A stretch of DNA of 64,000 nucleotides from Gemmatimonadota bacterium (GTDB taxonomy: Bacteria > Gemmatimonadota > Gemmatimonadetes > Gemmatimonadales > GWC2-71-9): positions 28,800-92,799 of the forward strand of contig JBKPAO010000032.1 of assembly GCA_046726475.1 (NCBI GenBank), written 5' to 3'. Under the pieces are notes generated by a model, which worked only from the letters and a program-made list of their open reading frames with translations, ran no database searches and had not been told where the DNA came from. Of this stretch, positions 6,686 to 64,000 are shown in pieces (the stretch's first letter is position 1; every line of letters begins with the position of its first letter). The translations under genes were made by a program, and so were the position numbers.

Positions 6686-6708
6686 GCGTACTCCTTTTGG
6701 GCTGGGCC

Positions 6709-7821: not shown

Positions 7822-7843
7822 GACGTCCGGAGGAGCACTATAC

Positions 7844-8723: not shown

Positions 8724-8727
8724 AGGG

Positions 8728-9936: not shown

Positions 9937-10016
9937 GTTTCCCCGACAGCGTGAGCCGGTGAAAGGTCAGCTGTGAGCGGGAGCTCCGAGAGCCAATGCT
10001 TACCGATTACCGCCTA

Positions 10017-11680: not shown

Positions 11681-11687
11681 TGCCGCG

Positions 11688-12644: not shown

Positions 12645-12655
12645 CGTATTCTCCC

Positions 12656-42979: not shown

Positions 42980-43028
42980 GATTGAACGGCTAATGTAAGA
43001 TGGTACCGCGAGTTCGGAAAGTCCGCGG

Positions 43029-47876: not shown

Positions 47877-47882
47877 CGATCC

Positions 47883-49295
47883 TCAACGGAGATGGAGCGG
47901 AGCACCGGAAGGGGGGGTGTGCTTCGCGCTGGCCTTGAGCGCCGGAAGTATACGCTCCAGCGCCACCCCGCGGGATGCCTTGAGCACGACCACTTCGTCG
48001 CCCCTGAGGTGCGGGACCAGGAGCGGGGCTAAGGTCAGGGGATCCGGAGCTGTGAGGAGACGATGGCGCAGGGCGCCCGCGAACGGCTCGAGAGCGGGCA
48101 CGAAGTCGCCGACCGCCGCCAGGAGCTCCGGGTGGAGATCGACCAGTGCCTCGGCAATCTGTCGATGCAGCATCGCCGAATCATGGCCTAGCTCCCGCAT
48201 TGTGCCCGCGACGAATACCAGCCGCCGATCGCCTCGTAACGCGGCTGCGGTAGCAATGACGGCGCGAAACGACTGGGGATTGGCATTGTAGCAATCGTTC
48301 AGAATGGTGAGCCCGCCCTCCTGAAGCAGCTCGCCGCGCCCACCCGGTATGGTGAACTGCTCCAACGCTGTCGCCGCAACCGCAGGGTCGATCCCGAGCT
48401 CTTCGCCCACGGCCCAGACGCGAATGGCGTTGTCGGCCTGATGCAATCCACGAGCCGCCAGCGTGAAGGCGTGACCGCGCAGAGTAATGATCGGACGAGC
48501 TGCCTCATCCAGCTTCACTTGATCGGGAACCAGCTCCGCATTTTGTAAGCCAGCCGTCCGAACCCGCCGCGCGCGTCGGCGCGCCCCCTCGGCGAGCGCA
48601 AGAGGATCGGTGCCTACGATCGCGAGCGGCACTCCCTCGGTCAGAGCCAACTTCTCTACCACCACGCCAGAGAGAGAGCCGAATCCCTCCAGATGGCCGG
48701 CGACAGCATTGGTGACGATCGCGATGGAGGGCTCGATGATTTGACGGCAGCGAGCGATCTCGCCCGGCAGGTTAGCGCCCGCTTCAACGATGAGCGCTTC
48801 GGTGTCGGGCGGCGCTTCCAGGATGGTCTGAGGGACCCCGACCAGATTATTCAGGTTCGCGCGAGTGGCGTAGGTCCGGTATTTGGTGCCAAGGACGGCC
48901 GCGAGCATCTCCTTGGTACTGGTCTTCCCATTGGTGCCGGTCACCGCGATGACGGGACCCTGAATCGATCGGCGCCGCGCCCGAGCGAGGAGACCGAACC
49001 CACGGAGCGTGTCGTCCACCTCGAAGAGAAGAAGCCCGGGTACAGCCGGGGTTCCCTTCCGTACCAGTGCCGCCGTTGCACCTGCCGCCTGCGCTCCCGC
49101 GAGGTGATCATGACCGTCGAACCGCTCGCCGGTGAGAGCCACGAAGAGAGCGCCCGCTCGAACGGTCCGGCTGTCAGTCGAAATTCCCGAGAAGGTGGTA
49201 CGGCGAACTCCAGGGTCTACTGGAAGGCCGAGCGCCTCCCGGACGGCAGTCTCAGGCCAGGGCGGCGTGTCGGCGATCTCGCGCTCACCGGTCAC
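47883..49295 (-). CDS. murF: UDP-N-acetylmuramoyl-tripeptide--D-alanyl-D-alanine ligase
   Basis: 470 aa with VTGTNGKTSTKEM. The GTG start overlaps the murE TGA. Confidence 0.92.
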   Translation of the reverse strand: MTGEREIADTPPWPETAVREALGLPVDPGVRRTTFSGISTDSRTVRAGALFVALTGERFDGHDHLAGAQAAGATAALVRKGTPAVPGLLLFEVDDTLRGFGLLARARRRSIQGPVIAVTGTNGKTSTKEMLAAVLGTKYRTYATRANLNNLVGVPQTILEAPPDTEALIVEAGANLPGEIARCRQIIEPSIAIVTNAVAGHLEGFGSLSGVVVEKLALTEGVPLAIVGTDPLALAEGARRRARRVRTAGLQNAELVPDQVKLDEAARPIITLRGHAFTLAARGLHQADNAIRVWAVGEELGIDPAVAATALEQFTIPGGRGELLQEGGLTILNDCYNANPQSFRAVIATAAALRGDRRLVFVAGTMRELGHDSAMLHRQIAEALVDLHPELLAAVGDFVPALEPFAGALRHRLLTAPDPLTLAPLLVPHLRGDEVVVLKASRGVALERILPALKASAKHTPPSGAPLHLR

Positions 49296-50752
49296 CGGGC
49301 GCCGCTCACGGCTTTCTCCACAATCTCCCGCTCGTCGAAGTGAATCTTCTCAGTGCCGATCACCTGATATGTCTCATGCCCCTTCCCCGCCAGGAGTATG
49401 GTGTCGCCCGCGCGAGCCTTCTCCAATGCAGCGTGAATCGCCGCGAGCCGGTCGGTGATCCTGATGTGCTGCGTCCCCCTCATACCTCGCTCGATGTCGT
49501 CGATAATGGCGTCCGGGTTCTCAGTCCGCGGATTATCGGATGTCACGATGGCCAGGTCGGAGCCTTGGACTGCGATACGGCCCATCAGGGGCCGCTTCCC
49601 GCGATCTCGGTCGCCACCACAGCCGAAGACCACGATCAAGCGGCCACTCGTGAGAGGTCTCAGACTGGTCAACGCCCGCTCGAGGGCGTCCGGTGTATGG
49701 GCATAATCCCGAAGCACGACACAGGGTGATTCGGAGATCCGTTCCATCCGCCCCGGCACTTGCGGAGACGTTGCCAGTCGTTCAACGACGCGATCGGGTG
49801 GCTCCCCGAGTGCAAGTGCAGCGGCGGCCGCCGCCAGCCCATTGGCTACGTTGAAATCGCCCAATAGAGGCAGAGAGACCTCGGTTGCGCCGAACCGGCC
49901 ATGCATCTGAAAACGTGAACCGCCGGCGCTCAGGATCACACCGGTGGCTCGGACGTCGGCACCGCCCTGGAGACCAAACGTCACTCGGGGAGCATAGGGC
50001 GGGAGCGCCCGCCAGGCATCCTCATCCAGGTTGACCACCTCGACTCCACCTCCAGCGAGCAGTGTGCTCAAGCGCAGTTTGGAGGCAAGATAGGATTCCA
50101 TCGTGCCGTGATAATCGAGGTGATCGCGCGTCAGATTGGTGTAGACCCCGACCGCAAAGGCTAGCCCATCCAGTCGGCCTTGATCCAGGCTGTGGGAGGA
50201 CGTCTCCATTACTACGTGAGTCGTACCGGCCTGAACCAGGGCCGCGAGCGTAGCTTGCAAGTCGACCGGACCCGGTGTCGTTAGTGATCCAGCGGTGGAA
50301 GCAATGGCCCTGCCGCAACCGTCGAAAGCACCCAGCGTTCCAATGCTTCCAGCAGTCTCCCGCTCGTTCAATAGATGGCGAATCAGTCCGGTCGTCGTGG
50401 TCTTACCGTTGGTGCCGGTCACCCCAATCAGTCTCAGGTGACGGCCGGGGTGGCCGTACCATGCCGCCGCGAGGACCAGGGCCGCGCGCCGGCTATCCCG
50501 CACGACGATTTGGGGCACTTCGACCGGCTGGGGAATCTCGACGAGTGCAGCCGACGCACCGCGCTGCAGCGCACCGGTCACGAATTGATGTCCGTCGGTT
50601 TGAGATCCACGCACCGCCACGTAGACCATCTCTGGCTCGATCGCGCGACTATCCACGCCGATCGCTCTGGGATCGGGCCCGTGTGCCGGCGCCGTGATGA
50701 GCAGATCAGCCCGGCGAAGCTCGTCGAGGATCTGGCTCCAGGTCAGCGGCAC
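49292..50752 (-). CDS. murE: UDP-N-acetylmuramoyl-L-alanyl-D-glutamate--2,6-diaminopimelate ligase
   Basis: 486 aa. VTGTNGKTTTTGL and the DNPRTE motif, which is consistent with meso-DAP-type MurE. GTG start. Confidence 0.93.
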   Translation of the reverse strand: MPLTWSQILDELRRADLLITAPAHGPDPRAIGVDSRAIEPEMVYVAVRGSQTDGHQFVTGALQRGASAALVEIPQPVEVPQIVVRDSRRAALVLAAAWYGHPGRHLRLIGVTGTNGKTTTTGLIRHLLNERETAGSIGTLGAFDGCGRAIASTAGSLTTPGPVDLQATLAALVQAGTTHVVMETSSHSLDQGRLDGLAFAVGVYTNLTRDHLDYHGTMESYLASKLRLSTLLAGGGVEVVNLDEDAWRALPPYAPRVTFGLQGGADVRATGVILSAGGSRFQMHGRFGATEVSLPLLGDFNVANGLAAAAAALALGEPPDRVVERLATSPQVPGRMERISESPCVVLRDYAHTPDALERALTSLRPLTSGRLIVVFGCGGDRDRGKRPLMGRIAVQGSDLAIVTSDNPRTENPDAIIDDIERGMRGTQHIRITDRLAAIHAALEKARAGDTILLAGKGHETYQVIGTEKIHFDEREIVEKAVSGAR

Positions 50753-50771
50753 GGGATTCTCGGCGAAATGA

Positions 50772-52727
50772 TCACTCGGTCCACACCACTACCGTTGTTC
50801 CCACTTTCGCCGTTTCGCCGGCTGTGGGCGCCGTCCGGCTCACCCGGCCAAACCCTTTCAGGCTGACACGGAATCCGCTCCGATGCAGCGCCAGTGTTGC
50901 CTCCCGGACAGGTCGCCCATCGACCAAGGGAACCGGCCGTTCCCGGGATAGGGTGTCAGTCACGTGATAGGGCCAGGACAGGACCACACGCGCAGGTGTG
51001 GGCTCAGGATTTCGCGAAAGCGACTCCAGAGTCGCTCTGTGATCGCCACCGGACAATCGCGTGTGCTCGATGGCAATCCGGCGGGAGGCCAGCGCCTGCT
51101 GCAGCATGGTACGCGTGACCGGGGCGGCTGTTAATCCGCCGTAGTACTTGCCGCGGGGGTTGTCGATTTTGACGATCACGACCAGCTGTGGGTCGTCTGC
51201 CGGAAAGAGCGCTGCGAACGAGGCGGTATAAGTGCCGTGGACGTAGCGCCCGTTCTCAAACCGCACGGCGGTGCCGGTCTTTCCCAGTACCGTGTAGTTG
51301 ACCAGCTGGGCCTCCTCGCCGGTTCCACCTTCACTCGCCGCTCCCCTCAAGAACTCCCGGAGCTGCGCGGCTACCGCCGGTGTCACCACCCGCCGGACCG
51401 GCTCCGGCCGGTGCTGGTAGATCGGAGGTCCTGACACACTGCGGATCTCTCGAACCAACGTGGGCGTGAGCAGAACGCCGTTATTCGCGATGGCGGCGTA
51501 GGCCGCCGCCAGCTGGACGGGGGTGACTCCGAACTCGTAGCCCATTGCCACACTGGCGCGGGTATACATCGGTTCCCACTTATCAGGCCGTTCCAAACGG
51601 CCTCTCGACTCGGAAGGAAATTCCGCGCCCGTCGGCGCTCCGAACCCGAAGTCCCGCAGCATCTCGTATTGCTCTTCCGGAGAAAGCCGAGAGGAGAATT
51701 TGGCCATTCCAATATTGCTGGACACTTGGATGGTTCGGGCCAAGGTAAGATTCCCCGTGGTCCGATGCGCGTCGGTAATCACGCGGGTCCGCCCGCTGCT
51801 CGTGATCGGCATGCGCCACAGGCCACCTTCCGCGAACACCGCATCGTCCTCAGTCACTCGGCGGAGAGTGAGGAGGGCGGCGGCCGTAAAAAGCTTAGCG
51901 GTAGACCCCGGCTCGAATGGATCGGTGAAGACCGATGCTCTGGCCGAGCCGGCGCCCTGCCTGGAGGCCAGCGCCAGCAGCTCACCGTTCCTGGAATCGA
52001 GAAATACGACATCGCCACCATCAGCCCGCATCGCGGAGATTGCCTCCTCCAACCCCCGTTCGGCGATCTCCTGGAGCTCGGCGTCGATAGTCAGAACCAC
52101 ATCGTTCCCCGCGACCGGTTCACGAATCAGTCGTGCGGGGGAATCGTACCGCCGGCCCGCGCGATCTTTGAGCAAGACCGCCTCGCCCGGTTGCCCCGTC
52201 AGAATAGAGTCGAGCGACAACTCCAGGCCGGCAGCGCCCCCGGGGCCATCCGGTGAGAGCCCTCCGATTATCGGCCGGGCCAGCGACCGTGAGGGATAGA
52301 AGCGCTGGAAGTCGCGACTGAGATGAATGCCGTCCAACTGGCGTAGCGGTTGGACCTGAGTCGCCGTATAGGGACCGTGATAATAGATCCAGCGCTTACC
52401 CGCTCTGAGATCGCGCCATACCGTCGCGGGAAGTATCCCGAGACACCGAATCAACTGCCGGCCGGCAGCCCGAGAATCTACGAGCTCATTCGGGGCGACG
52501 CCGACATGGTAAAACTCCTGGCTGAGGGCGAGAGGAACACCGTTTCGGTCGTAGAGCCCTCCGCGTTTTGCCGGGAGTACAGCACGCTCGGTTCGCTGGC
52601 GCGCCGCCTGCTCCCTCCAGCGCTCACCCTGAAAGAGTTGCAATTGTGCCGCGCGGGCGAGGATCGCGATAATGGCCAGCGCGAACCCGAACTGGACGAC
52701 GACGATCCGCGTTGCCGGCTTCGCCAT
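50772..52727 (-). CDS. ftsI: Penicillin-binding protein (FtsI/PBP3-type transpeptidase) with a C-terminal PASTA-like domain
   Basis: 651 aa. N-terminal TM, then the STAK (SxxK), SSN and KTGTA motifs. The C-terminal ~70 aa (VPLVDGRPVREATLALHRSGFRVSLKG) looks PASTA-like. Confidence 0.92.
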   Translation of the reverse strand: MAKPATRIVVVQFGFALAIIAILARAAQLQLFQGERWREQAARQRTERAVLPAKRGGLYDRNGVPLALSQEFYHVGVAPNELVDSRAAGRQLIRCLGILPATVWRDLRAGKRWIYYHGPYTATQVQPLRQLDGIHLSRDFQRFYPSRSLARPIIGGLSPDGPGGAAGLELSLDSILTGQPGEAVLLKDRAGRRYDSPARLIREPVAGNDVVLTIDAELQEIAERGLEEAISAMRADGGDVVFLDSRNGELLALASRQGAGSARASVFTDPFEPGSTAKLFTAAALLTLRRVTEDDAVFAEGGLWRMPITSSGRTRVITDAHRTTGNLTLARTIQVSSNIGMAKFSSRLSPEEQYEMLRDFGFGAPTGAEFPSESRGRLERPDKWEPMYTRASVAMGYEFGVTPVQLAAAYAAIANNGVLLTPTLVREIRSVSGPPIYQHRPEPVRRVVTPAVAAQLREFLRGAASEGGTGEEAQLVNYTVLGKTGTAVRFENGRYVHGTYTASFAALFPADDPQLVVIVKIDNPRGKYYGGLTAAPVTRTMLQQALASRRIAIEHTRLSGGDHRATLESLSRNPEPTPARVVLSWPYHVTDTLSRERPVPLVDGRPVREATLALHRSGFRVSLKGFGRVSRTAPTAGETAKVGTTVVVWTE

Positions 52728-53023
52728 CAGGGACGCCCAGGAGCGGAGGGAACCGCGAACAACACGAACTCCGAGTCCGCCGGCTCGTGCAGTCCCAGGT
52801 TACGTTTGGCGATGGGCACCAGCACCTCGCGGCTGGAGGCCACCCGTATCCGGCGCTCGAGATCAGCGCGACGGGCTTCCAGAATGCCGCGCTGCTCTCG
52901 AAGATCGTGAAGCCGGCGCGCTGTGCGCAGCGCTGTAGTCTGCCGGGACACCACCGCCAATGCGCCCCCCAGGAAGATCAAGAGCCATAGAAACACCCAG
53001 TGCCGCCCCTTAAGTCGCTTCAT
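52727..53023 (-). CDS. ftsL: Cell division protein FtsL-like
   Basis: The internal ATG at 53021-53023 gives MKRLKGRHWVFLWLLIFLGGALAVV (one TM) followed by a heptad-rich region. This is the canonical position between rsmH and ftsI. Confidence 0.65.
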   Translation of the reverse strand: MKRLKGRHWVFLWLLIFLGGALAVVSRQTTALRTARRLHDLREQRGILEARRADLERRIRVASSREVLVPIAKRNLGLHEPADSEFVLFAVPSAPGRP

Positions 53024-53930
53024 CGACCACAAAGGTTCGGAGCTTGGCACTTCGCGCGCGGGGGTTGGTCTTGAGCTCCTGCTCGTCCGGCAACACCGGT
53101 CGTCGAGGCTCGACTCTTCCCAGCGACCGGCCACGACAGGTGCAGACCGGGAGGCCCGGTGGGCAGACGCACCTGCTGGCCCATTCGCGGAAAGCGTGCT
53201 TCACCAACCGGTCCTCTCCCGAATGATAGGTAATGATCGACAGTCGGCCGCCCGGCTTGAGTGCGTCCCGGAGTGCGGGGAGAGCACTCGCCAACTGCTC
53301 CAACTCGTGATTGACCGCAATCCGCACGGCCTGAAAGAGGCGAGCGAACTCGGGAGGACCTGTCCTCGGACCGAGAACGGCCCGGATGGCATTCACCAGG
53401 TCATCGCTGACGGCAAATGGTTGGCGTGCCCGTCGGCGCAGAATCTCCGCGGCAAGGCGCCGGGCCCGCCGCTCGTCTCCGTAATCGCGGAAAATGCGCT
53501 CGAGCGCTGCTCCGTCCGCATGGTTGAGGAGGTCGGCTGCGCTTTCTCCTGCGTCTTCCATCCTCATGCCGAGCGGCGCACCGGGACGGAAGGTAAAACC
53601 CCGGCCCGCCTCGTCCAGCTGGCGCGAAGAGACCCCCAGGTCGAGCAGGATGAAATCCGGCTCGAATCGGGTGACGGCCGTAAGCGCCTCCGGCGAGGCG
53701 TACGCCGTTTGCAGGTAACGGATCCCGGCTTCTCCGAGCCTCTGCCGACTGAGCGCAATCGCCTCGGGATCGCGGTCGATGCCAAGGACCTCCGCGCCAT
53801 TACTGAGCAGGGCAGCCGCGTGACCACCGTCTCCCAGCGTAGCATCGACTGCCCGGCGAGCTCCTCGCGCGGCCAGACGCACCTGCTCCAGGAGCACCGG
53901 CACGTGATATATCGAAGTCTGTTGTGGCAT
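53010..53930 (-). CDS. rsmH: 16S rRNA (cytosine1402-N4)-methyltransferase
   Basis: MPQQTSIYHVPVLLEQV...DATLGDGGHAA...DLGVSSRQLD. I chose the start at ATG 53928-53930 because the longer ORF would run through an intrinsic terminator. Confidence 0.92.
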   Translation of the reverse strand: MPQQTSIYHVPVLLEQVRLAARGARRAVDATLGDGGHAAALLSNGAEVLGIDRDPEAIALSRQRLGEAGIRYLQTAYASPEALTAVTRFEPDFILLDLGVSSRQLDEAGRGFTFRPGAPLGMRMEDAGESAADLLNHADGAALERIFRDYGDERRARRLAAEILRRRARQPFAVSDDLVNAIRAVLGPRTGPPEFARLFQAVRIAVNHELEQLASALPALRDALKPGGRLSIITYHSGEDRLVKHAFREWASRCVCPPGLPVCTCRGRSLGRVEPRRPVLPDEQELKTNPRARSAKLRTFVVDEAT

Positions 53931-53949
53931 CTCGAGCTCTGACGGGCCG

Positions 53950-53979
53950 AAACACAAACCCCGTCCAGAGGGGACGGGG
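53950..53979 (-). terminator. Rho-independent terminator downstream of tRNA-Asp
   Basis: The minus strand reads CCCCGTCC-CCTCT-GGACGGGG (8-bp perfect GC-rich stem, 5-nt loop), followed immediately by TTTGTGTTT. Confidence 0.75.
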
Positions 53980-54001
53980 TGAGCATTGTTCATCAGAGCG
54001 A

Positions 54002-54076
54002 GCGGGGCTGACGGGGCTCGAACCCGCGACCTCCGCAGTGACAGTGCGGCACTCTAACCAAGCTGAGCTACAGCCC
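54002..54076 (-). tRNA. tRNA-Asp (anticodon GTC)
   Basis: 75-nt cloverleaf folded by hand: acceptor GGGGCTG/CAGCCCC, anticodon stem CCGCA/TGCGG with loop CTGTCAC, T-loop TTCGAGC. CCA is not fully encoded. Confidence 0.93.
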
Positions 54077-54090
54077 CAGAACGGAGGGCG

Positions 54091-54099
54091 GAATATATC
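54091..54099 (-). promoter_or_regulatory. Candidate extended -10 promoter element for tRNA-Asp
   Basis: The minus strand reads TGATATATT (TGnTATATT) ending 14 nt upstream of the tRNA 5' end. The -35 at 17-nt spacing is poor (TGGCTC). Confidence 0.35.
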
Positions 54100-54130
54100 A
54101 AGGCGATGGGCTGTGAGCCACTGCTCGCCC

Positions 54131-56017
54131 TTATGCCTTCTTCTTCTTACTCGCCTTGCAGTACGCCTTCAGCATCGAGGCAATACGCGGGTTGTACTTC
54201 TTGATGATATCCAGGTTTTTGTCCACCGCTTGTGGATTGACCGAGCGGCCTGCGGTCAGCGCAGAGTCCGCGCCGGCCAGCAGCGCCTGCTCCTGTTTGG
54301 CCCCATCACAGGACTTCTGCTTCTCGGTTATTGGGTCCTGCTGAGGTACCTGGAACAGCAGAGCTAGGCCAAGCAAGTAATTGGCGGCAGGATAGACCTT
54401 GCCCGACGGATTGGCCGTTTGCACCGCCATCCGGAGGATCTGCTCGGCCCCCTGGAGATCCTGGGGCTGCTGGAGCAGCGGGGTGGCCGCACTATAAAGC
54501 AGTACCGCCGCCTTCTCCTTGGCGTCGGCATCGCCATGCTTGATCACAAACTCCAGGAAGGGCACAGCCTCCTTGGATCGGGGCGTGAAGCCGCTCGGGC
54601 TCGTTGCAGCTCCAGCCTTGGATGTGTCGGGTCGAGTGGCCGTGGACGAATCACGTTTGACCGCCCCTTTGCTGGTGTCCGGATGGGCGGAGCCGCGCGC
54701 GGAATCGGGTCGCTGGGCGGTGCTGTCCGGCTCGGGAGGGAGCACCAGGGCCTTGGCCGCCGCCAACGCCACCTCGACCCCCGTCTCGGTCGTGTCCTTG
54801 GCGATGATCCGGTTGGCGACCGCTATCAGGCTGTCGGTCTGGCCGGTCATCGCGTACCCGGTGCTGAGATAGCGAAGGAGCGTCGGGTTGTTGGGATATT
54901 TCCGATTTCCAATCTGCGCCCACTTCACCAGCCGGGGTGCGTCTTTCCCCTCCTGAGCCGCCACTGAGATCTTGCTGAAGAACAGCGTATCCGCCTTGGT
55001 GGAGTCGGTCGCATACATCGTCTCGAGAGCATCGACCGCACACTTGAAGTCGCCCAGGAACAGGCATGCATTACTCTTGAGATCGTACAGATCCGCGTTG
55101 TTGGGATCGAGCTTTAGGCCCTCGTCTGCTACCTTGCGCGCCGTCTCCGGGTGTCCCGAGGCCAGGAAGTACTTGAACAACCTCTCTCTGAGCGCCTGGT
55201 TGGTCGGGGCGACGGAGAGCATGTGCGAGAACGCATCCAGCGTTTTTGCTGTGTCGTTAGCGGCCTGGTACTGCTCGGCCAGGGCGGTCCACGCCGGGAG
55301 GCTCAAGGGATCGCTCTTTACCGCGGCCTGGAGGTGCTGAACCACCTCGGCAGGCTTCTTCTGCGTCCGGGCGATCTGCGCCAGACAGAACTCCGCCAGC
55401 CCATAATTCGGCAGGGTCTTGGTTGCCTTCGTGGCGGCTTCCTGCGCTTTGTCGGGCTTGGCGGCCTGCTGATCGACGCATGCCTTGGCATCAGGCAGGG
55501 CTTTCACCGTGGGCTGAAGCGCCTGGGCAATCTTCTTACCGAAATCCTCGGGAGTCTGTCCCTGTGCCTGAGTCAAAGAGACCACGTTCCCGGCGTCGTC
55601 GTTCACCCCGGTGAGGCGCGCGGTCACTGTGGGAGGCTTCCCGGCAGCACTCGCCAGGGTGCCCGTCACGATGACTCGGGCCTGGATATTCTTGGCCAGA
55701 GTGGTCGCGAGCGGAGGGCTCAGGATTGCGTCTATCGGGTAACCGTACTGCTTCAGAGCGTCGTTCATCTGACTCTGCTCGATCACCGTGAAATTGCGGC
55801 CAACGATACCCTTCATCTCCTGCCGCATCGCAGTGCCGATCCTGACGGCGTTCGCCGAATCACCCGGAGCGAAGGCAAAGGGGTTGGCCACCATCAGCCT
55901 GGGGGCATTGGTGGCGGGTTGAGTGGTGCGCGCACCGCGGGGAATTCCCTGCGCCGAGAGGCGCGTGGAGACGATTCCTACGGAGAACGCGATGAGCATC
56001 GAACGCGACAGATACAT
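54131..56017 (-). CDS. Secreted TPR-repeat protein (unknown function)
   Basis: ATG 56015-56017 gives the signal peptide MYLSRSMLIAFSVGIVSTRLSAQG. Multiple TPR-like helical repeats, an S/T/P/D-rich linker and a Lys-rich tail (KASKKKKA). Confidence 0.65.
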   Translation of the reverse strand: MYLSRSMLIAFSVGIVSTRLSAQGIPRGARTTQPATNAPRLMVANPFAFAPGDSANAVRIGTAMRQEMKGIVGRNFTVIEQSQMNDALKQYGYPIDAILSPPLATTLAKNIQARVIVTGTLASAAGKPPTVTARLTGVNDDAGNVVSLTQAQGQTPEDFGKKIAQALQPTVKALPDAKACVDQQAAKPDKAQEAATKATKTLPNYGLAEFCLAQIARTQKKPAEVVQHLQAAVKSDPLSLPAWTALAEQYQAANDTAKTLDAFSHMLSVAPTNQALRERLFKYFLASGHPETARKVADEGLKLDPNNADLYDLKSNACLFLGDFKCAVDALETMYATDSTKADTLFFSKISVAAQEGKDAPRLVKWAQIGNRKYPNNPTLLRYLSTGYAMTGQTDSLIAVANRIIAKDTTETGVEVALAAAKALVLPPEPDSTAQRPDSARGSAHPDTSKGAVKRDSSTATRPDTSKAGAATSPSGFTPRSKEAVPFLEFVIKHGDADAKEKAAVLLYSAATPLLQQPQDLQGAEQILRMAVQTANPSGKVYPAANYLLGLALLFQVPQQDPITEKQKSCDGAKQEQALLAGADSALTAGRSVNPQAVDKNLDIIKKYNPRIASMLKAYCKASKKKKA

Positions 56018-56085
56018 GCCAGAAATCTCCACAACGGGTCGGCCCAGATCGGGCCTGCAGCGCCCCGCCCAGCGCGGGTGCGAAA

Positions 56086-56453: not shown

Positions 56454-57296
56454 CTACGGTTCCCTGGTCGGGTCAAGTTCAGACGGGGCTATAGCTTCCG
56501 GAGGAAGCTCCCATCCCTCATCCAGCGCCGCGCGCCGGGCACGGTCCGCCCGCTTCCGCCGGCGCAGAAGCGCCCAGACTGCCAGACTGAGTATCCCCCA
56601 TCCGCCCCCCGCTACGAGCCAAGTGGCAAGACTGTACCTCCGGCGGAGGCTGTGGCGCCATTCATTCTCGAATTGTGAGACGGTCAAGCCGGTGGTGGCG
56701 TGCACGCTGGCTTCGAAATCGTCGCCCGCACGCAGCCGCTGCAGGAGCGGAGTGAGGGAATGAGACGGGTTCAGCCGGGCCAGCTCGGTTACCGCCGACA
56801 CTGCCAGGGCATAGGATACATCCGCGGTCGAGGCGGATCCTCGCAGCGCCCCGTCCAGCGTTCGAAGGTCGGGGACGGCACCCCGCACCACCGCAAGGTT
56901 GAGCTCGAGAGTACCGAGACGGTCCCACTCGCCGGCGGCCCACGCCGCGTAACCTTCGTCAAACCACAACGGCACTCGAACGGTGACCGCCTGGTGGAGC
57001 GCGAGATGGGCGAGCTCGTGTCGGAGTGTGCGGTACAGGTCGTCGACATCGGCGCGCAGCAGGATAGTGCGCGAACCCGGCACTGCCACCGCTGCCCCCC
57101 ACGCCGGGGCGCGACCGCCGGAGAGAGAGTCCATCCGGCGTGCATCGGGAACCACAATCAGCCGGAGGGGACCAGGGGAGTGACGGCCGAGGCCCGGCCA
57201 TTCAGTGGCTTGCCCGGCACGCCGAGCAAGCTCGGTAGCCAAACCAAGCTGGCCAGGCCAGGCCACGGCTGTCACCTGCCCTACCCGCACTGCCAT
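56454..57296 (-). CDS. HExxH metallopeptidase-like protein (MA-clan, peptidase_MA_2-like) with a C-terminal TM anchor
   Basis: HELAH in LRHELAHLALHQ, followed by WFDEGYAAWAAGEW (putative third ligand Glu). C-terminal LATWLVAGGGWGILSLAVWALLRRRKR. Confidence 0.6.
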   Translation of the reverse strand: MAVRVGQVTAVAWPGQLGLATELARRAGQATEWPGLGRHSPGPLRLIVVPDARRMDSLSGGRAPAWGAAVAVPGSRTILLRADVDDLYRTLRHELAHLALHQAVTVRVPLWFDEGYAAWAAGEWDRLGTLELNLAVVRGAVPDLRTLDGALRGSASTADVSYALAVSAVTELARLNPSHSLTPLLQRLRAGDDFEASVHATTGLTVSQFENEWRHSLRRRYSLATWLVAGGGWGILSLAVWALLRRRKRADRARRAALDEGWELPPEAIAPSELDPTREP

Positions 57297-57349: not shown

Positions 57350-58219
57350 TCAGGAAAGCGGACTGCGCGGGACTTCACCTCCGGCTGCCGCAACCTCCAG
57401 CATCTCTTGGCAGCGTTTGGCCCAGGGATTGAACTTGTTGGCCTTGTACCCGTCGGTCCATGCTCGGACCGCCTCTTCCCGCTCACCTCCGAGCCATAAT
57501 GCCCGGCCCAGCTCGAAGTAGGCCTCGATCAGATTGGGTCCCAGCTTCAGGGTCTTGCGCAGGAAGGTTTGCGCGTCCTCGTACATCTCACGCTCCAGGT
57601 AGACCAACCCAAGATAGTAGTGCGCGTAGAGAGTAGCCTTGCGGTCATTGTCGAGTCGTATCGCTTTCGAGAGGTGCTCGATCGCCTCGCCGAAAATTCC
57701 CTTTTTGAGGCAGATATAACCCACATTGATTCGCGCCAACGCGTTGGCCGGCTCCTTCATCAGCACTTTGGAAAAGTTTCCCAGGGCGTCGTCGTAGTCT
57801 TCATTGAGCATCTGGGCCCACCCCAGCAACGAGGTGGCTTCGACCGCTCCGGGTGACAGGCTCAAGGCGCGCTCCAGCGCCTGAATGGCGCCGGTGTAAT
57901 CGCCCAGAGAAATCAGGCTCCATCCCTTTTCTATATATGTAGAGGCTCCGAGATGGTCGGCGTGGACTGCCGGGCGCGCCCCATTGAACTGGGGAGCCGC
58001 GCTGACCTCGGCGGCGCTGACGGTCTGTTTGTAGCGTTCGACCAGCCCTTTGATCTCCTCCTTGATGTGCCCCAAGTCGGAAAGCGCCCCGTCCACCCGC
58101 TTGAAGAGCGAGATGATGTCCCGCTTCAGCGACTCGCGTCCGGCACCCGCAGGCGCGTCCACCCGGCCTGCGATCGCCTGGAGCTCGGTGCGGAGCGCAG
58201 CCAGCCAAGCCTCGGTCAT
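57350..58219 (-). CDS. Coiled-coil plus TPR-repeat protein (che-operon associated)
   Basis: 289 aa. N-terminal heptad-like region (LKRDIISLFKRVDGALSDLGHIKEEIKGLVERYKQ), then about 5 TPRs. The ATG shares 1 nt with the cheW TGA. Confidence 0.65.
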   Translation of the reverse strand: MTEAWLAALRTELQAIAGRVDAPAGAGRESLKRDIISLFKRVDGALSDLGHIKEEIKGLVERYKQTVSAAEVSAAPQFNGARPAVHADHLGASTYIEKGWSLISLGDYTGAIQALERALSLSPGAVEATSLLGWAQMLNEDYDDALGNFSKVLMKEPANALARINVGYICLKKGIFGEAIEHLSKAIRLDNDRKATLYAHYYLGLVYLEREMYEDAQTFLRKTLKLGPNLIEAYFELGRALWLGGEREEAVRAWTDGYKANKFNPWAKRCQEMLEVAAAGGEVPRSPLS

Positions 58220-58683
58220 CAGGCGGCTCCCAGCTCACTCAGCGCCAGCCGCTCACTCGAAGAGAGCAGCTTCCTGGCATTAAGGATGATAACAGTCCGT
58301 CCGGGGCGAGTGACGATGCCTGCGATGTAGACCGCAGCCAAGCCACTGACGATCGGGGATGGCGCGGTGATCACCGTGCTGTCGACCCGCAGCACTTCCA
58401 GGACTTCGTCCACCAACACCGCTATGCGCTGGCCGTCGAGCTCCAGGACCATCAGGCGAGTCTCCTCTCGGATCAGCGCCTCGAGCTCGAATCGTTTGCG
58501 AAGGTCGATGACCGGGACGGCGCTCGCGCCGTAGGGCATCACCCCCTCCAGGAAACCTGGTGCCTTTGGCAGCGGCGAGGGGGCGGAGTAGCGGAGGATC
58601 CGCTCGACCTGAAGAATGTCGAAGGCGAATTCCTGTCGGCCCACCCGGAACGTCACCAGCTGAACGTCGTCCCCTGTGGTCAT
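58219..58683 (-). CDS. cheW: Chemotaxis coupling protein CheW
   Basis: 154 aa. LVTFRVGRQEFAFDILQVERIL...PGFLEGVMPYGASAVPVIDLRKRF is the canonical CheW sequence. Confidence 0.88.
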   Translation of the reverse strand: MTTGDDVQLVTFRVGRQEFAFDILQVERILRYSAPSPLPKAPGFLEGVMPYGASAVPVIDLRKRFELEALIREETRLMVLELDGQRIAVLVDEVLEVLRVDSTVITAPSPIVSGLAAVYIAGIVTRPGRTVIILNARKLLSSSERLALSELGAA

Positions 58684-59111
58684 TGCGATGCGGCCTCCAG
58701 CAAACGTGAGCTCAGAGCGGATAAATCCAGCAGGGGGACGAGTTCCCCATCATGTCGTGCAACGCCAGTGGCCCAGGGCAGTGTTTCCCCCGCGGGCACG
58801 GGCAGCGCCGGCTCGTGCAGCAGGATCTCAGCTTCTTCCACCTCCAGGCATACTCGCTTACCCTCCACCAGGATGACCACCCCGGTGGTTCCTACCTCCG
58901 TAGGATGCGCCGTGCCTTGAAGCAAGGAGGCGAGATGCACCAGCGGTACCATCCGCCCCTGCATCGCCACCAAGCCGCGAACAGCGGGCTCGATGACTGG
59001 GACCGACCGCACCTCACCGAGTTGTGTCACCGCAATGACATGGGAGAGCTCCAGCCCCACGAAACGACTCCCGGCGCGGACCAGTAGAAACCCGGATTCG
59101 CGCCGGCTCAT
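58680..59111 (-). CDS. cheW: CheW-like coupling protein (second copy, divergent)
   Basis: 143 aa. [21 protein letters not shown]...[21 protein letters not shown]. CheW fold pattern, but more divergent than the neighbouring copy. Confidence 0.8.
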
Positions 59112-60184
59112 CGCGTTCTCAACTGACTAAGCTCCGCGGCGATCCGCGGAGCCATTTGGGAAACAGGCAGAACCTCCCTCACGCCACCGGATTGCAACGC
59201 CGCCGCCGGCATTCCATAGACGGTGGCGCTTTCGCGATCCTGAGCCAGCCCAACCCCGCCTGCGTCATGGATGCGCCTGAGACCTTCCGCACCATCACGA
59301 CCGATACCAGTGAGAACGACGCCGATGGCTCGGGCGCCAAACCGCGCCGCGACGCTGCTGAAGAGCGGATCCGCTGCGGGGCGCACGCCCCACACTGTTG
59401 GGCCTCGGTCCAACATGAGACACAGGGCGCCCGGGGCAGGATTAACCCGCATGTGGTAATCGCCGGGTGCCACGTACGCCGTATCCGCGAGGAGCGGCAT
59501 GCCATCCTCCGCTTCCACGACCTTGCAGCGGCTCCGGGAAGCGAGTCGCTCCGCCAGGCTGTGGGTGAACTTGGGCGGCATGTGCTGAACGACTACCACT
59601 GCGGCCTCCTGCCCGATTGGGAGACGCGGAATGATTTCGGCCAGCGCCCGAGGGCCTCCGGTCGAAGCGGCAAAGGCCACGCAGAGCCTTGCCTCTCCTG
59701 GAGCGGTCCGCGCACTCGAGGCTTGCATTGTCCTGCCGGACTCTTCGGCGCGAGCGACGCGCTTGATGTCAGCCGAGCGGGCAGTCCGCAACACGGTCAT
59801 CAAACGCTCGGCAAACCGGGCCGTCGCGGCAGCGCCGCGTTCATCTTCCTTGGCCACCAGGTCGACGGCGCCCAGCTCCAGCGCACGAATCGCCGCCGTC
59901 GCTCCGGGACCGGCGTGGGCGCTGACCACTACAATCGGGAGTGGTGACTCGGCCATGATGTACCCAATGGCTCCGAGTCCATCCAGCTCAGGCATCTCCA
60001 GATCCATGAGCACCACATCGGGAGCCAGCGAGCGAACCTTGCGGAGCGCATCCATGCCATCACGTGCGGTCGCGATGACCCGGAACTCACCCGACCCCTC
60101 CACCACGTCGGTCAGCAAGCGACGAAAGAAGGCGCTGTCGTCGACCACCAGGACCCGGCCCGGATCAGAGGTGCTGGGTGCCAT
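59108..60184 (-). CDS. cheB: Chemotaxis response regulator protein-glutamate methylesterase CheB
   Basis: 358 aa. REC domain ([11 protein letters not shown]...[14 protein letters not shown]) plus a methylesterase domain with ASTGGP, QHMP and GIGRDG. Confidence 0.93.
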
Positions 60185-60653
60185 GCGCGACGGTCCTCAC
60201 TTCCACTTGACCATCCCCGACCCGCAGGCGGACCGTTCGACCGAAGTCGCCGCCCACCGCTTCCCCCACGAGAGGAACGCCGTGCGCGTTCAAGGCCTGC
60301 CGCGCAGCGGCCAGGTTCCGCTCTCCCATCTGGAGAGTGCCGGGCGGGGCCAGCGCCGCAAACATGCTCGCGCCGCCGGCCAGTCGACCGGTGATTCGGT
60401 CAGCGCGGGCGCCATCAGCCTGCATCAGCTCGAGCAGGCGAGGCACCGCCGATTGGGGGAACTTTGCGGGGTTGCTGTCGGCGCGAGCCAGAGCCGGGGA
60501 AGGCAGCAGTGTGTGAGCCAGTCCTCCCACCCGGGCCTCGGCGTCATAGAGAACGATGGCCACACAACTCCCCAGGCCGACCGTGACCAGCACATCGTCG
60601 GCTACCCCAGTCCGCAGATCGGCGACGCGAACGAGCAGTTCCCGGCCGGTCAT
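60165..60653 (-). CDS. cheD: Chemoreceptor glutamine deamidase CheD
   Basis: 162 aa with [12 protein letters not shown] (catalytic Cys) and GGLAHTLLP. Overlaps cheB by 20 nt. Confidence 0.88.
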
Positions 60654-61471
60654 GCGGCGCGCCGATACACCCGCTCGCGCGGATCCAGCAGCGTCAGTCG
60701 CTCGCGCGCCGGGCCGAAAAGAGTCTCGACCTTTCCCAGCACCAGAAAGCCGCCGGGCGCGAGCGCGTCAGCGAAGGCATTGAACACCCGCTCTTGGGCT
60801 GCACGCCCGAAATAGATGACGACGTTCCGGCAAAGGATCAGGTGATAGTTCCGGCGCGGCGGCGGGTCGTTGACCAGGTCGGAGGCCCGGAGCACAACCC
60901 TACGGCGCACCTGCTCCGCGACCCGGCGGAGATCACCCTCGCTTTCGAAATACCGCTGGACCAGCCCGGCCGGGACTTCGACAAGTGCCTCGGCGGAATA
61001 CCGAGCGGCCTGCGCGCGGGCGAGGCACTCGCGGTCGATATCCGTGGCATCGATGGTGACCAGGCCGAGCCGGTCTGTCCTGCCTTGGGTCTCCAGGCGC
61101 TCGGCGATGAGCATGGCGAGGGTGTACGGCTCCTCCCCCGACGAGCAGCCCGCACTCCATGCCCGCACCTCGTGCTGCCCGTCGGCACAGATCTCCCGCA
61201 GCACGGTCTCTCGCAGAAGGTTCCAGGTTTCGGCGTTTCGGTAGAAGCGGGTAACGTTGATGGTGATAGCATCCTTCAGCCGCTCGTACTCCTCCGGGCT
61301 TCGATCCAACACCGCCTGGTAGTCCGAGTACGTGTGGGCGCCACAGGCGCGCATACGAACGGCGATTCGCCGCCGGAGGCACTTGTCCTTGTAGTCCTGC
61401 ATCGGGAGTCCCACCTCCCGCGAGATCTTCGCGGCGAGGGCGGCGAACGCTGCCTCATCGGGGGGCGTCAT
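60650..61471 (-). CDS. cheR: Chemotaxis protein methyltransferase CheR
   Basis: 273 aa. TRFYRNAETW and the SAM-binding VRAWSAGCSSGEEPYTLAML. Confidence 0.92.
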   Translation of the reverse strand: MTPPDEAAFAALAAKISREVGLPMQDYKDKCLRRRIAVRMRACGAHTYSDYQAVLDRSPEEYERLKDAITINVTRFYRNAETWNLLRETVLREICADGQHEVRAWSAGCSSGEEPYTLAMLIAERLETQGRTDRLGLVTIDATDIDRECLARAQAARYSAEALVEVPAGLVQRYFESEGDLRRVAEQVRRRVVLRASDLVNDPPPRRNYHLILCRNVVIYFGRAAQERVFNAFADALAPGGFLVLGKVETLFGPARERLTLLDPRERVYRRAA

Positions 61472-63084
61472 TGGGACAAATCCAGCATCTCGAGGTTCGC
61501 CCTGGCGAGTTGATGCCCCGGATTAAGCGACGTTGCCTGGGCCCAGCTTTCCCTTGCGCGGATGTGATCGCGCCGCTTGTAGGCGATGTTGCCCAGCTTG
61601 AAGTACAGGTCGTCGCCCAACTCCGGATTGAGCTTTGCCGCCCGCTCGTACGCCTCGGCAGCCTCCTCGTATCGGCCGTTGCGATAGAGGAGGTCTCCCA
61701 GATTCTTCGAGACCTGAGGCAGCGCGGCGTCTTCGGCGAGCGCCGAGCGCAGGAGCGTTTCCGCTCCTTGGACGTCGCCACTGACCTCCAACAGCACCGC
61801 GAGATTGTTCTGGAGCACCGGATGGTGAGGAAAGGCGGTGACTCCCTCGCGAGCGATCCGAAGCGCATCCTCCGCATCGTCGATGCCGGACGCGGCCAGG
61901 GTGGCGCCCCAGTACCAGAGTGCCGGCAGCGGTTTTCCGTCCAGTAGCTCGCAAGCGCGCGCCAACCGTGCCTGGGCCACCTTGTTGTCGCCACGTTTGA
62001 GAGCCACGATGCTCCAGCCCAGCATGATTCGTGGATCGTCCTTGGCTCGGCCGGCCGCGTCGCCGAACGCCGCCTCAGCCTCATCCAGCCGACCCAATTG
62101 TTCGAGTGCAAACCCCAGGTTGTGCAGCGCCGCAGGCCGGGGCACGCCCGATTCAGCGGCCTGGCGCAGGGCGACTGCCGCTTCCTCCCAGCGGGCCTGA
62201 CGTATGGCAATGAGACCCAGGAATAACGGTGCGCCGCTGTCGGCCGGCCGTAGTTCGATCACCCGGCGGAACTCGCGCAGGGCCTCCTCCAGCATTCCCG
62301 CTTTGTAAAACGCGATCCCTAGGTTGCGGTGTTCATCGACCCGGCTCTCGTTGACCTTAGGGGCAATCGCGGTGGAGGTGCCCACCCGGTGCGCGAAGCC
62401 GGCGGTAATCAGTCCAAAGAGCGCTTTGCCGACCTCGAACTCGACCAATCCCGACTCATCGATCAGTTGGCGCACGTCGCGCGTGCCGTCGATGAGGGAA
62501 AGCAGCCGTTGTTGCTCGGATGAGAGCGTAGGAGCCGATTGCTGGATGTGCTGCTGATCGACCGAGAAGATCAAATCGAAGGAGGGGATCTTTTTCTCGA
62601 TCAGACTCCATTCGTCCACCCGCCGAGCGCCCTCCAGCAACAGCGCCTCGGGGCTGATGCGAACGAGAAAGTCCTCTCGCTCGGGGCGAACACCCGCCTC
62701 GAAGTTGAACGTGCCTGATGTCCAGGTGAACAGGTAGTACACCGCTTCTTCTATCTGGAGGCGTATGTACTCCTCCAGCTCAGTCCGGGACAATAGGCCC
62801 AGGCCCACCAAAATTTCACCCAACTTGTGTTGTCGGTCGTCCACCTGGGCTGCGATGGCTTGCTGCAGCTGCTCGGCGCTGATACGGCCTTTGCGGAGCA
62901 GGATGTCACCCAGGCGGTCGCGGCGGTTCACGATCGAGGCGTACACGATCTGTCCTTCATCCAGGTAGATCGTCCCGAAGTTGTGCTGGTCCGCGAGCGC
63001 GAGGCAGCCGGTGCGCCGCCCCAGAAACAGCAGCTGAATGACGTCCGGTAGACTGGCCTCTTTGAGGCTGCCCTTGATCGCCAT
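61468..63084 (-). CDS. PATAN (DUF4388) domain protein with tandem MshEN/T2SSE_N-like repeats and C-terminal TPRs
   Basis: ATG 63082-63084 shares 1 nt with the upstream TGA. MAIKGSLKEASLPDVIQLLFLGRRTGCLAL...GTIYLDEGQIVYA is the PATAN pattern. It is followed by RLGDILLRKGRISAEQLQQAIAAQ / KLGEILVGLGLLSRTELEEYIRLQ and then at least 6 TPRs. Confidence 0.75.
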   Translation of the reverse strand: MAIKGSLKEASLPDVIQLLFLGRRTGCLALADQHNFGTIYLDEGQIVYASIVNRRDRLGDILLRKGRISAEQLQQAIAAQVDDRQHKLGEILVGLGLLSRTELEEYIRLQIEEAVYYLFTWTSGTFNFEAGVRPEREDFLVRISPEALLLEGARRVDEWSLIEKKIPSFDLIFSVDQQHIQQSAPTLSSEQQRLLSLIDGTRDVRQLIDESGLVEFEVGKALFGLITAGFAHRVGTSTAIAPKVNESRVDEHRNLGIAFYKAGMLEEALREFRRVIELRPADSGAPLFLGLIAIRQARWEEAAVALRQAAESGVPRPAALHNLGFALEQLGRLDEAEAAFGDAAGRAKDDPRIMLGWSIVALKRGDNKVAQARLARACELLDGKPLPALWYWGATLAASGIDDAEDALRIAREGVTAFPHHPVLQNNLAVLLEVSGDVQGAETLLRSALAEDAALPQVSKNLGDLLYRNGRYEEAAEAYERAAKLNPELGDDLYFKLGNIAYKRRDHIRARESWAQATSLNPGHQLARANLEMLDLSQ

Positions 63085-63965
63085 CAGCGCCACTCCTCGA
63101 CGATGCGATCACCGACATCGGGCCAGTCCCAGACCAGCTTTTCCCGGCTGCGGGCACCGACCACGGGTGCCACGACTCCACTGGCTCTGATAGCCACAGA
63201 TCTGCGCGGCGGCTTGGCCGGAGCACCTTCCAATACCTCTCGAGCCAGCGCGGCGCTGGGCAAGATGTCCTTGGCCTCAGCGGCGTTCAGAACCCGCTGC
63301 AGCAAGCCTTGCACGGCACGGACCGAGTCCGCCGGCCGCGAGCTGAGATACGAGGCGAGCTCGATATCGGCCTTACCGACCTTGGCCTGCAGCAGCCGTT
63401 CGACGACGTGCTGACGGATTTCACGTTCTGGAGGCGGCAGATCGACAACCAGGCCCCCCTCCAGTCGGGTACGAAGCCGAGCTTCTACCGCAGTGAGCTC
63501 AGCCAGCGGTACCGCAGAAGTGAAGACCATCTGCCGGCCGGACTCCATAAGAAAATTGAAGAGGACGAAGAGCTCGTCCTGAGTCCGGTCCTTCTCAGCG
63601 ACGAGGTGGACATCGTCCAGCAGAAAGGCCCCAGCCCCCCGATAGCGTGCGCGCCAGGGGCCCACGGCATCCCGGTCGATTGCCTCGATCAGTTCGCCGG
63701 TAAACTCGTGCGAGCTGAGGCAGGCCACCGGCCCGCGCGCTCGCTCTGCCAGGGCATTTCCCAGCGCGTGCAGCAGATGGGTCTTCCCTACCCCGCTGGC
63801 ACCAACGATGACGAGGGGGTTATAGCGACTGGATGGCTCGGCCACGATCGCCCGCGCGGCCTTCAGCGCGATGCGGTTGCCGTCTCCCTCGAACAGGTCG
63901 TCCAGCCGCCAGATGGGCAACGGTGCCGGCGGAGGATGAGCCCCCTGACGGGCCCGTAAGGTCAC
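63084..63965 (-). CDS. DnaA-family AAA+ ATPase paralog lacking the DNA-binding domain IV (N-terminus possibly beyond the window)
   Basis: YNPLVIVGASGVGKTHLLHALGN (Walker A), AFLLDDVH (Walker B), MVFTS (sensor I) and RLRTRLEGGLVVDLPPPEREIR (DnaA box VII/VIII-like). There is no KRxxxxRQxAMYL-type HTH. GTG start at 63965, but the frame stays open to 64000. Confidence 0.75.
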   Translation of the reverse strand: MTLRARQGAHPPPAPLPIWRLDDLFEGDGNRIALKAARAIVAEPSSRYNPLVIVGASGVGKTHLLHALGNALAERARGPVACLSSHEFTGELIEAIDRDAVGPWRARYRGAGAFLLDDVHLVAEKDRTQDELFVLFNFLMESGRQMVFTSAVPLAELTAVEARLRTRLEGGLVVDLPPPEREIRQHVVERLLQAKVGKADIELASYLSSRPADSVRAVQGLLQRVLNAAEAKDILPSAALAREVLEGAPAKPPRRSVAIRASGVVAPVVGARSREKLVWDWPDVGDRIVEEWR

Positions 63966-64000
63966 TGCCTCCGCACCGGCAATGTCGTCCGGATCGCGGA

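Follow-up and report, generated by a model that had tools for sequence, protein, structure and literature searches.

A gene at the end of a 64,000-nucleotide stretch of DNA from a Gemmatimonadota bacterium (assembly GCA_046726475.1, contig JBKPAO010000032.1, positions 28,800 to 92,799; this whole stretch is called the window) encodes part of an ATPase whose full-length relatives carry two modules of the DnaA domain III type (DnaA-III) in tandem. The DnaA ATPase module is known for the initiation of replication and, in Hda, for the control of initiation. It is found here in an unexpected setting, namely in a large and diverse two-module family that lacks a DNA-recognition domain and whose genes are fixed between mglA and genes for PATAN and tetratricopeptide repeat (TPR) proteins. 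Because the gene holds this place among MglA and chemotaxis-like genes across Gemmatimonadota, the DnaA engine appears to be re-used for signalling and not for the start of replication. The reading that we favour, with a probability of roughly 0.55, is that the tandem ATPase is a dedicated, stoichiometric subunit of an MglA/Roadblock–PATAN–TPR polarity module tied to a chemotaxis-like system, in which it would serve as an ATP-driven switch or scaffold. The observations behind this reading concern the architecture of the family, the conservation of its motifs, the order and overlaps of the genes, and domain fusions.

The gene lies on the minus strand, and its reading frame, which ends at position 63084, is open to the window edge, with 304 sense codons followed by TGA. 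Judged from relatives at 65–92% identity, about 350 further codons, for module 1 and most of the linker, would lie beyond position 64000; what the window contains is module 2, the C-terminal tail and no more of the linker than its end. A GTG at 63965 opens a frame of 293 residues. It is not the true start, since the residues upstream of it (RDPDDIAGAEA...) are kept in homologues, which run much further N-terminally, and, with conservation reaching as far as the window edge, the 293-residue frame was not accepted as the gene. The features of the fragment are given below; conservation was counted over 38 diverse family sequences for module 2 and 36 for module 1.

63084–64000, minus strand: 3' part of the tandem DnaA-III ATPase gene (304 sense codons and TGA), from the translation and Pfam/NCBIfam matches
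63906–63998, minus strand: end of the inter-module linker, residues 1–31 (RDPDD...PPPAPLPIW), conserved in the A1 and A2 alignments
63219–63905, minus strand: module 2, consisting of a DnaA-type AAA+ core (63441–63905) and lid (63219–63440), from PF00308, TIGR00362 and PDB matches
63777–63803, minus strand: Walker A, GASGVGKTH, with the lysine in 37/38 family sequences
63606–63626, minus strand: Walker B, FLLDDVH, with the two aspartates in 37/38 and 34/38 family sequences
63573–63596, minus strand: EKDRTQDE, aligned with K243-E-R245-S246 of E. coli DnaA (in the family, R in 23/38 and Q in 33/38)
63507–63527, minus strand: sensor I position, VFTSAVP, from the alignment to E. coli DnaA
63450–63485, minus strand: Box VII, EARLRTRLEGGL, with both arginines, the equivalents of E. 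coli R281 and of the arginine finger R285
63300–63329, minus strand: sensor II, DSVRAVQGLL, with the equivalent of E. coli R334 (in 34/38 family sequences)
63087–63218, minus strand: C-terminal tail, 48 residues at the protein end, an R/P/V-rich stretch followed by the end motif SREKLVWDWPDVGDRIVEEWR at 63087–63149
63082–63086, minus strand: TGATG overlap (reads ...CGC TGA TGG...), in which TGA 63086–63084 and ATG 63084–63082 have one base in common

The Pfam model Bac_DnaA (PF00308) matched residues 32–186 of the window protein with an E-value of 3.8e-39 (134.9 bits against a cut-off of 23), and the best solved structures were those of B. subtilis DnaA (8btg/8bv3, E ~4e-40). The NCBIfam model for DnaA, TIGR00362, aligned at profile positions 110–339 of 437, that is, over domain III and the lid without domain IV, and the score of the fragment (189.2 bits) is under the equivalog cut-off of 343.9. 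Pfam gave no match to Bac_DnaA_C (domain IV) in the window protein, and its last 48 residues contain no helix-turn-helix; the tail terminates in WDWPDVGDRIVEEWR (within 63087–63149). A preliminary description of this DNA had read the frame as open at 64000, as a DnaA-type AAA+ module without a DNA-binding domain, and as sharing one base with the PATAN gene downstream. These points hold, and all the motifs quoted there were found. The module is, however, not fully canonical, since the sensor I aspartate of DnaA (TSDR, D269 in E. coli) is replaced by alanine (TSAV). The hydrophobic residue at the position of E. coli V211 is retained, and EKDRTQDE is aligned with K243-E-R245-S246, which we take to be the 'B-motif' of E. 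coli DnaA that contacts single-stranded DNA.

The closest homologues of the window protein are 79–92% identical and all come from Gemmatimonadales metagenomes; all named relatives of the tandem ATPase belong to Gemmatimonadota. Two of the homologues (P0002 and P0003) extend N-terminally via the conserved linker and reach the last part of a further module of DnaA type (TSDRPP...RLxRRFxGGL...NVRELxGALNRL). In eight loci from short-read metagenome-assembled genomes (MAGs; L006 and L008–L014, GTDB genomes) the gene is one uninterrupted open reading frame (ORF) of 640–670 codons. Full-length relatives of 640–700 residues consist of two DnaA-III modules in tandem with a conserved helical linker between them. 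Pfam found two Bac_DnaA stretches in all five full-length relatives scanned and matched neither DnaA_N nor Bac_DnaA_C in any of them. A search with one full-length sequence yielded more than 100 proteins of 645–657 residues. Among the best 150 representative matches at 50% identity, about 60 clusters are represented by full-length members, which can be aligned over their whole length at identities as low as 33%. Only 2–5 residues precede module 1, whose first motif, LNPxxTFDTFV, is the one with which domain III begins; in the relatives, the identity of module 1 to domain III of B. subtilis DnaA is ~50% by sequence alignment (E 1e-58) and ~45% by Foldseek.

The names given to members of the family vary: NCBI uses 'DnaA/Hda family protein' or 'hypothetical protein', and the JGI uses 'chromosomal replication initiator protein DnaA'. 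The full-length tandem protein P0121 (L009, 9986–11944) scores 504.8 bits with TIGR00362 against the cut-off of 343.9, but only because two partial matches, each to domain III only, are summed. Tandem ATPases annotated as DnaA could inflate the number of dnaA copies counted in a genome.

On four long-read ENA contigs (L001–L004, ERZ250395xx) the gene is broken, around 9900–9990 in L001 at a frameshift in a run of ten cytosines (C10) and around 9100–10050 in L002–L004. These splits were read as sequencing artefacts because of the C10 frameshift in L001 and the many fragmented genes in L004, and the possibility of two adjacent genes in place of one was ruled out by the single ORF in nine short-read loci and in the more than 100 proteins. 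Gene calls on the ERZ250395xx contigs understate the length of the protein.

Walker A and Walker B are near-invariant in both modules. Two further positions differ between the modules: the sensor I aspartate is present in 24/36 sequences of module 1 versus 5/38 of module 2, and the arginine finger (the second Box VII arginine) in 21/36 versus 33/38. The ATP site of module 1 and the finger of module 2 are thus the best-conserved pair, as expected if the modules were packed head to tail with one composite site. In the alignment to E. coli DnaA the equivalent of R245 is lost in module 1. Two further signatures, for which neither Pfam nor NCBIfam has a model, mark the family: DEFxxFL...W-R...RW-x-x-EG[FY]RT-x-RL in the linker, and E-K-x-[VI]-W-x-W-P-x3-D-R-[LVI]-[ILV]-E-E-[LWF]-R at the C-terminus, in which K, W and P are each conserved in more than 90%. 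In a simple neighbour-joining tree of modules (no support values, long branches) the first modules group together and the second modules likewise, which suggests that one old duplication gave rise to the two; E. coli Hda groups with neither.

An AlphaFold2 (AF2) model of P0121, built from 38 diverse sequences, has a mean predicted local distance difference test (pLDDT) score of 86.6 and contains two DnaA-III folds, a helical linker at residues 262–366 and two disordered stretches. The end of the linker in the window corresponds to P0121 residues ~345–375 and adjoins this helical region. Residues 608–632 have a pLDDT below 50, a short helix follows at 643–651, and the R/P/V-rich part of the tail is predicted to be disordered. 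The paired-helix insertion of initiator-clade AAA+ proteins is present in both modules of the model, at residues 76–88/92–100 in module 1 and 443–455/459–467 in module 2. The best Foldseek match is domain III of B. subtilis DnaA, with a template modelling (TM) score of 0.94 and a root-mean-square deviation of 1.5 Å. The tandem ATPase is a member of the DnaA/Hda AAA+ superfamily and of its initiator clade.

Fourteen Gemmatimonadota loci were examined, and in every one the gene belongs to an array of about 20 genes whose order is collinear, at protein identities down to ~41%. The order of the array is (CheW), CheY, CheA, CheC/X, a giant TPR protein of ~900 residues, PATAN-TPR, TPR(-Roadblock), Roadblock, a second Roadblock-like protein, a small GTPase, the tandem ATPase, PATAN-TPR, CheR, CheD, CheB, CheW, CheW, TPR and a Peptidase_MA_2 protein. 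The ~900-residue protein, whose precomputed annotation is blank, was identified as the giant TPR protein. The GTPase upstream of the ATPase is an MglA orthologue, as judged in L009 from a match to M. xanthus MglA (5ymx, E 1.4e-74) and the TVPGQ signature, and Roadblock domains, with weak matches to MglB, are encoded by two or three genes upstream of the ATPase in relatives. In 14/14 loci the ATPase gene lies between the MglA orthologue and a PATAN-TPR gene, which follows it immediately. The junctions are tight on both sides: the mglA stop overlaps the ATPase start in relatives (ATGA/GTGA), and the junction with the PATAN-TPR gene overlaps or abuts in the window and in 9/9 relatives (TGATG in 6, TAATG in 1, TAGTG in 1, TAGATG in 2). 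The adjacency to che and PATAN genes that the preliminary description pointed to is thus widely kept. Its placement of the gene at the head of a che operon stands for the run of genes visible in the window, which does start here; in relatives, at least 10 further co-directional genes lie upstream. The part of the array inside the window, and the genes that follow, are as listed.

61468–63084, minus strand: PATAN (DUF4388/PatA_N)-TPR protein, 537 residues, PF14332 (7.4e-38) and many TPR families
60650–61471, minus strand: CheR methyltransferase, PF01739 and PF03705, collinear in relatives
60165–60653, minus strand: CheD, PF03975
59108–60184, minus strand: CheB, receiver and methylesterase, PF00072 and PF01339
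58219–59111, minus strand: two CheW genes (58680–59111 and 58219–58683), PF01584
57350–58219, minus strand: TPR protein, 289 residues, TPR families, kept in relatives
56454–57296, minus strand: Peptidase_MA_2-domain protein, PF13485, the last widely kept gene of the array (10/14 loci and the divergent locus L090)
54131–56032, minus strand: TPR protein, 633 residues, between the array and the division/cell-wall (dcw) cluster, kept in 9 loci and L090
53010–53993, minus strand: rsmH, after the gene for the 633-residue TPR protein

Residues 57–108 of the PATAN-TPR protein in the window (62761–62916, minus strand) match NF053729, the NCBIfam model of an MshE-type c-di-GMP-binding motif, with 45.1 bits against a cut-off of 38, and the first PATAN-TPR protein of L009 (6592–7728) is also above the cut-off, with 40.8 bits. 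The PATAN-TPR proteins may be receptors for c-di-GMP. The stretch that matches is a helical insert of the PATAN domain, with two tandem repeats resembling RLGxxLLxxGxIxxxQLxxAL.

Which partners are steady can be seen from three divergent loci. In L090 (3024–17471; ATPase 36% identical to P0121) CheA, CheW, CheR, CheD and CheB are missing from the 10 kb on each side, and CheY, CheC, the giant TPR protein, PATAN-TPR, TPR, two Roadblock proteins, MglA, the ATPase, PATAN-TPR, TPR, the peptidase and the dcw genes are retained. L091 (34% identity to P0121) is without MglA and retains CheW/Y/A/C, the giant TPR protein and a PATAN gene that overlaps the start of the ATPase gene. In L089 (GCA_003697105.1, a Gemmatimonadetes MAG, 3765–12701; 36% identity to P0121) the giant TPR gene is directly upstream of the ATPase P0288, and no che, MglA-type or PATAN genes are present near it. 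From what the divergent loci retain, TPR and PATAN proteins are the steady partners, joined in most lineages by MglA and Roadblock. The match of the giant TPR protein to the neighbour in L089 (4.5e-89) was downgraded because repeat proteins align easily.

Some further observations concern these loci. The CheY/CheC pair of L090 is orphaned inside the polarity module. L091 encodes, at 4035–4853, a 272-residue P-loop protein with weak AAA_22/nSTAND matches between CheA and a 344-residue CheW-domain protein; this gene is not in the Gemmatimonadales arrays. Two bactofilin genes are located ~5 kb from the ATPase gene in L089.

Single DnaA-III modules also occur in fusion proteins. P0372 (L088, 3–2633, JGI metagenome 3300003310) is a protein of 876 residues with a long TPR array and one C-terminal DnaA-III module; it unites in one chain two protein types that the Gemmatimonadota arrays encode as neighbours. 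In L087 (4309–15923; GCA_030620115.1, JAUXFG010000024.1) three genes, for proteins of 983, 398 and 1,990 residues, combine MshEN with DnaA-III, and the largest has two DnaA-III modules ~1,300 residues apart. These genes, together with one for an MshEN-only protein, sit among PilD, PilB, PilT, PilC and PilS-like genes and a gene for a sigma-54 regulator (PilS-R). The sole named orthologue of the MshEN–DnaA-III fusions is from 'Candidatus Fermentibacteria'.

The tandem family can be compared with several known systems. With DnaA it has fold and clade in common; module 2 of the window has Walker A and B, the sensor II arginine and both arginines of Box VII, and module 1 of the relatives begins where domain III begins (structures 8bv3/8btg, 2z4r and 1l8q/2hcb/3r8f). 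It differs from DnaA in lacking domains I and II and the helix-turn-helix of domain IV, in having two modules per chain with a linker and C-terminal peptide of its own, in the loss of the sensor I aspartate from module 2, and in the location of the gene, which in the 14 loci is between mglA and PATAN-TPR and not beside dnaN or a replication origin. Like Hda and HdaA, the family has DnaA-type AAA+ modules without a DNA-binding domain and with an arginine finger. Hda, which acts in the regulatory inactivation of DnaA by stimulating, together with the loaded clamp, the hydrolysis of DnaA-bound ATP, is, however, a single-module protein of ~230–250 residues and carries its clamp-binding motif at the N-terminus (in E. 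coli Hda, QLSLPL), whereas the tandem proteins have 640–700 residues, and strict clamp-binding patterns (QL[SPDA]L[PF][LFI] or Q[LI][SD]LF) were found in 0/38 family sequences, the N-terminus of the window protein being outside the window; a loose clamp-like QLQLFL is present at the N-terminus of P0288 only (1/38). The Hda and HdaA models score far under their cut-offs on the window protein (TIGR03420, 78.6 vs 194.8; NF051883, 39.7 vs 300; NF006571, 37.3 vs 297; NF005982, 22.8 vs 268). The Hda-type architecture assigned in the preliminary description, and the beta-clamp-binding motif for which it proposed a search, were therefore not borne out.

The tandem type II AAA+ proteins p97/Cdc48, NSF and Rix7 also have two AAA+ modules, and were matched by the full-length protein in Foldseek with E ~1e-14; the combination of one fully equipped and one degenerate site is reminiscent of them. 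They belong to the classic clade and not to the initiator clade, the identity is 14–17% with TM scores of 0.24–0.35, and the modules of the present family are split by a helical linker of ~130 residues. Kinship with p97/Cdc48 was rejected and the match taken as generic resemblance among tandem AAA+ proteins. The gene content of the relatives' arrays resembles that of the MglA/MglB and Frz systems of Myxococcus xanthus, with an MglA orthologue, Roadblock, PATAN and TPR proteins and a complete set of Che proteins; the difference is that in the Gemmatimonadota relatives all components are in one array. The neighbouring PATAN-TPR protein with its MshE-type motif and the single DnaA-III modules fused to MshEN recall the c-di-GMP receptors with an MshE/PilB-type N-terminal domain; the ATPase of the window itself has no MshEN domain. 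A survey of MglA notes that MglA genes occasionally lie near PATAN genes, and the word 'DnaA' occurs in it 0 times (PMC4316618). According to a preprint (bioRxiv 10.1101/2021.06.11.447907), the type IV pilus motor of Synechocystis is bound by PATAN regulators, and according to a further paper MglA works with the TPR protein SgmX (PMC7519303). No paper was found in the open-access literature on a family of DnaA-type ATPases in MglA, PATAN, pilus or chemosensory systems.

A mechanism for the favoured polarity subunit can be proposed, in which we infer the proteins that the ATPase contacts, the formation of a composite site within one molecule, and the output. The two initiator-type AAA+ modules would pack head to tail, like neighbouring protomers in the filament of ATP-bound DnaA, and form one competent composite site, the arginine finger of module 2 completing the fully equipped ATP site of module 1. 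The site of module 2, which has no sensor I aspartate and would face a poorly conserved finger, may be a nucleotide-binding regulatory site with low turnover. Binding and hydrolysis of ATP would toggle the tandem protein between closed, assembled states and open ones. The acidic-aromatic C-terminal peptide (...W-x-W-P...E-E-[WLF]-R-COOH) and the linker could dock the ATPase on the TPR/PATAN scaffolds and on MglA. The output would be the assembly, localisation or turnover of the polarity complex, steered by the Che pathway and perhaps by c-di-GMP via the PATAN insert.

Several points weigh against this reading. The functional assignment is drawn from gene order and fusions, and for the window itself the upstream half of the gene and the mglA neighbour are deduced from relatives at 65–92% identity. 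The AF2 model of P0121 has a predicted TM score (pTM) of only 0.49, and the mutual placement of the two modules is therefore not predicted. The giant TPR proteins of different contexts are 28% identical over 808 residues, to which generic repeat similarity may contribute. The array usually adjoins the dcw cluster: at 39655–56032 (minus strand) of the window it runs on the same strand into rsmH, ftsI, murE, murF, mraY, murD, murG, murC and ftsA, and RsmH follows the array in seven Gemmatimonadota loci and in L090. Finally, module 1 is ~45–50% identical to domain III of a bona fide DnaA, and module 2 retains the residues aligned with those for single-stranded DNA, so that a role directed at nucleic acid or at DnaA keeps some probability.

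The most direct form of such a role is that of a replication or cell-cycle regulator, whose modules would hetero-oligomerise with DnaA and, by Hda-like stimulation of ATP hydrolysis or by capping or poisoning the filament, couple chemosensory and polarity signals to initiation. The likeness of module 1 to DnaA domain III and their common starting point, the retained Box VII arginines, the location of the array, which in the window and at least 8 relatives is followed directly by rsmH-ftsI-mur-ftsA on its own strand, and the resemblance of the N-terminal QLQLFL of P0288 to a clamp-binding motif would all fit. We nevertheless regard it as unlikely: the Hda/HdaA scores are too low, 37/38 members have no clamp-binding motif, the architecture is tandem and not single-module, the genes that stay with it or overlap it are those for MglA, Roadblock, PATAN and TPR proteins and not dnaN, dnaA or other replication genes, and related DnaA-III modules are fused to TPR and, in a pilus cluster, to MshEN. 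The preliminary description had left a choice between a link to replication or cell-cycle control and a repurposed nucleotide switch in a signalling complex. The former has little support beyond the nearness of module 1 to DnaA and of the array to the downstream dcw genes; the switch is favoured because the linkage to PATAN and che genes is conserved. A bolder variant, in which the tandem protein mimics DnaA and, under MglA and chemosensory control, joins the initiator via domain III to license or block replication, would fit the place of the array directly upstream of the division and cell-wall genes; we consider it decidedly improbable. The less radical proposal, that AAA+ modules of the initiator clade make up a class of signalling ATPases of polarity and pilus systems which had not been recognised before, is in our inference the best explanation.

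ParA-like ATPases are encoded in some che operons and are said to position complexes. By analogy, the ATP-bound modules could attach to the nucleoid or to single-stranded DNA by the DnaA-type contacts of module 2 and so position or partition the chemosensory or polarity complex. Module 2 has the equivalents of K243, R245 and S246 and the hydrophobic residue at V211, both modules of the P0121 model have the paired-helix insertion, and the gene is within a che-type array. Yet a domain for binding double-stranded DNA is missing, the R245 equivalent is lost from module 1, no data point to DNA, and in L090 the che kinase and adaptation genes are absent while the ATPase stays with MglA, PATAN and TPR; such a positioning ATPase is therefore given little weight. 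That the gene is a truncated or decayed dnaA copy, a helper of the IS21 IstB/DnaC type or an assembly artefact is hardly credible. The JGI name of many members, weak IstB_IS21 and DnaC matches and the splitting of the gene into two or three pieces on several long-read contigs could be cited for it. Against these stand domain order, linker and C-terminal motif, which are constant down to 33% identity in many independent assemblies; the splits fall at a homopolymer frameshift (C10 run, L001) in error-prone contigs with fragmented neighbour genes, the scores are far below the cut-offs (IS21 IstB, 38.3 vs 200; DnaC, 18.9 vs 357; DnaI, 30.1 vs 228), and no transposase is nearby. The probability that remains belongs to functions beyond the polarity subunit and these three rivals.

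The family is an annotation hazard, since it carries the DnaA label at the JGI and a full-length member passes the NCBIfam equivalog cut-off for DnaA by two summed half-matches. MglA systems have been studied intensively in Myxococcus, and the Gemmatimonadota are abundant in soil and poorly studied. Since related single modules are fused to TPR and to c-di-GMP-binding domains, the latter in a pilus cluster, our data suggest that the AAA+ engine of the initiator was recruited for polarity and motility signalling, possibly repeatedly. The tandem ATPase is a candidate extra component of MglA-type polarity systems.

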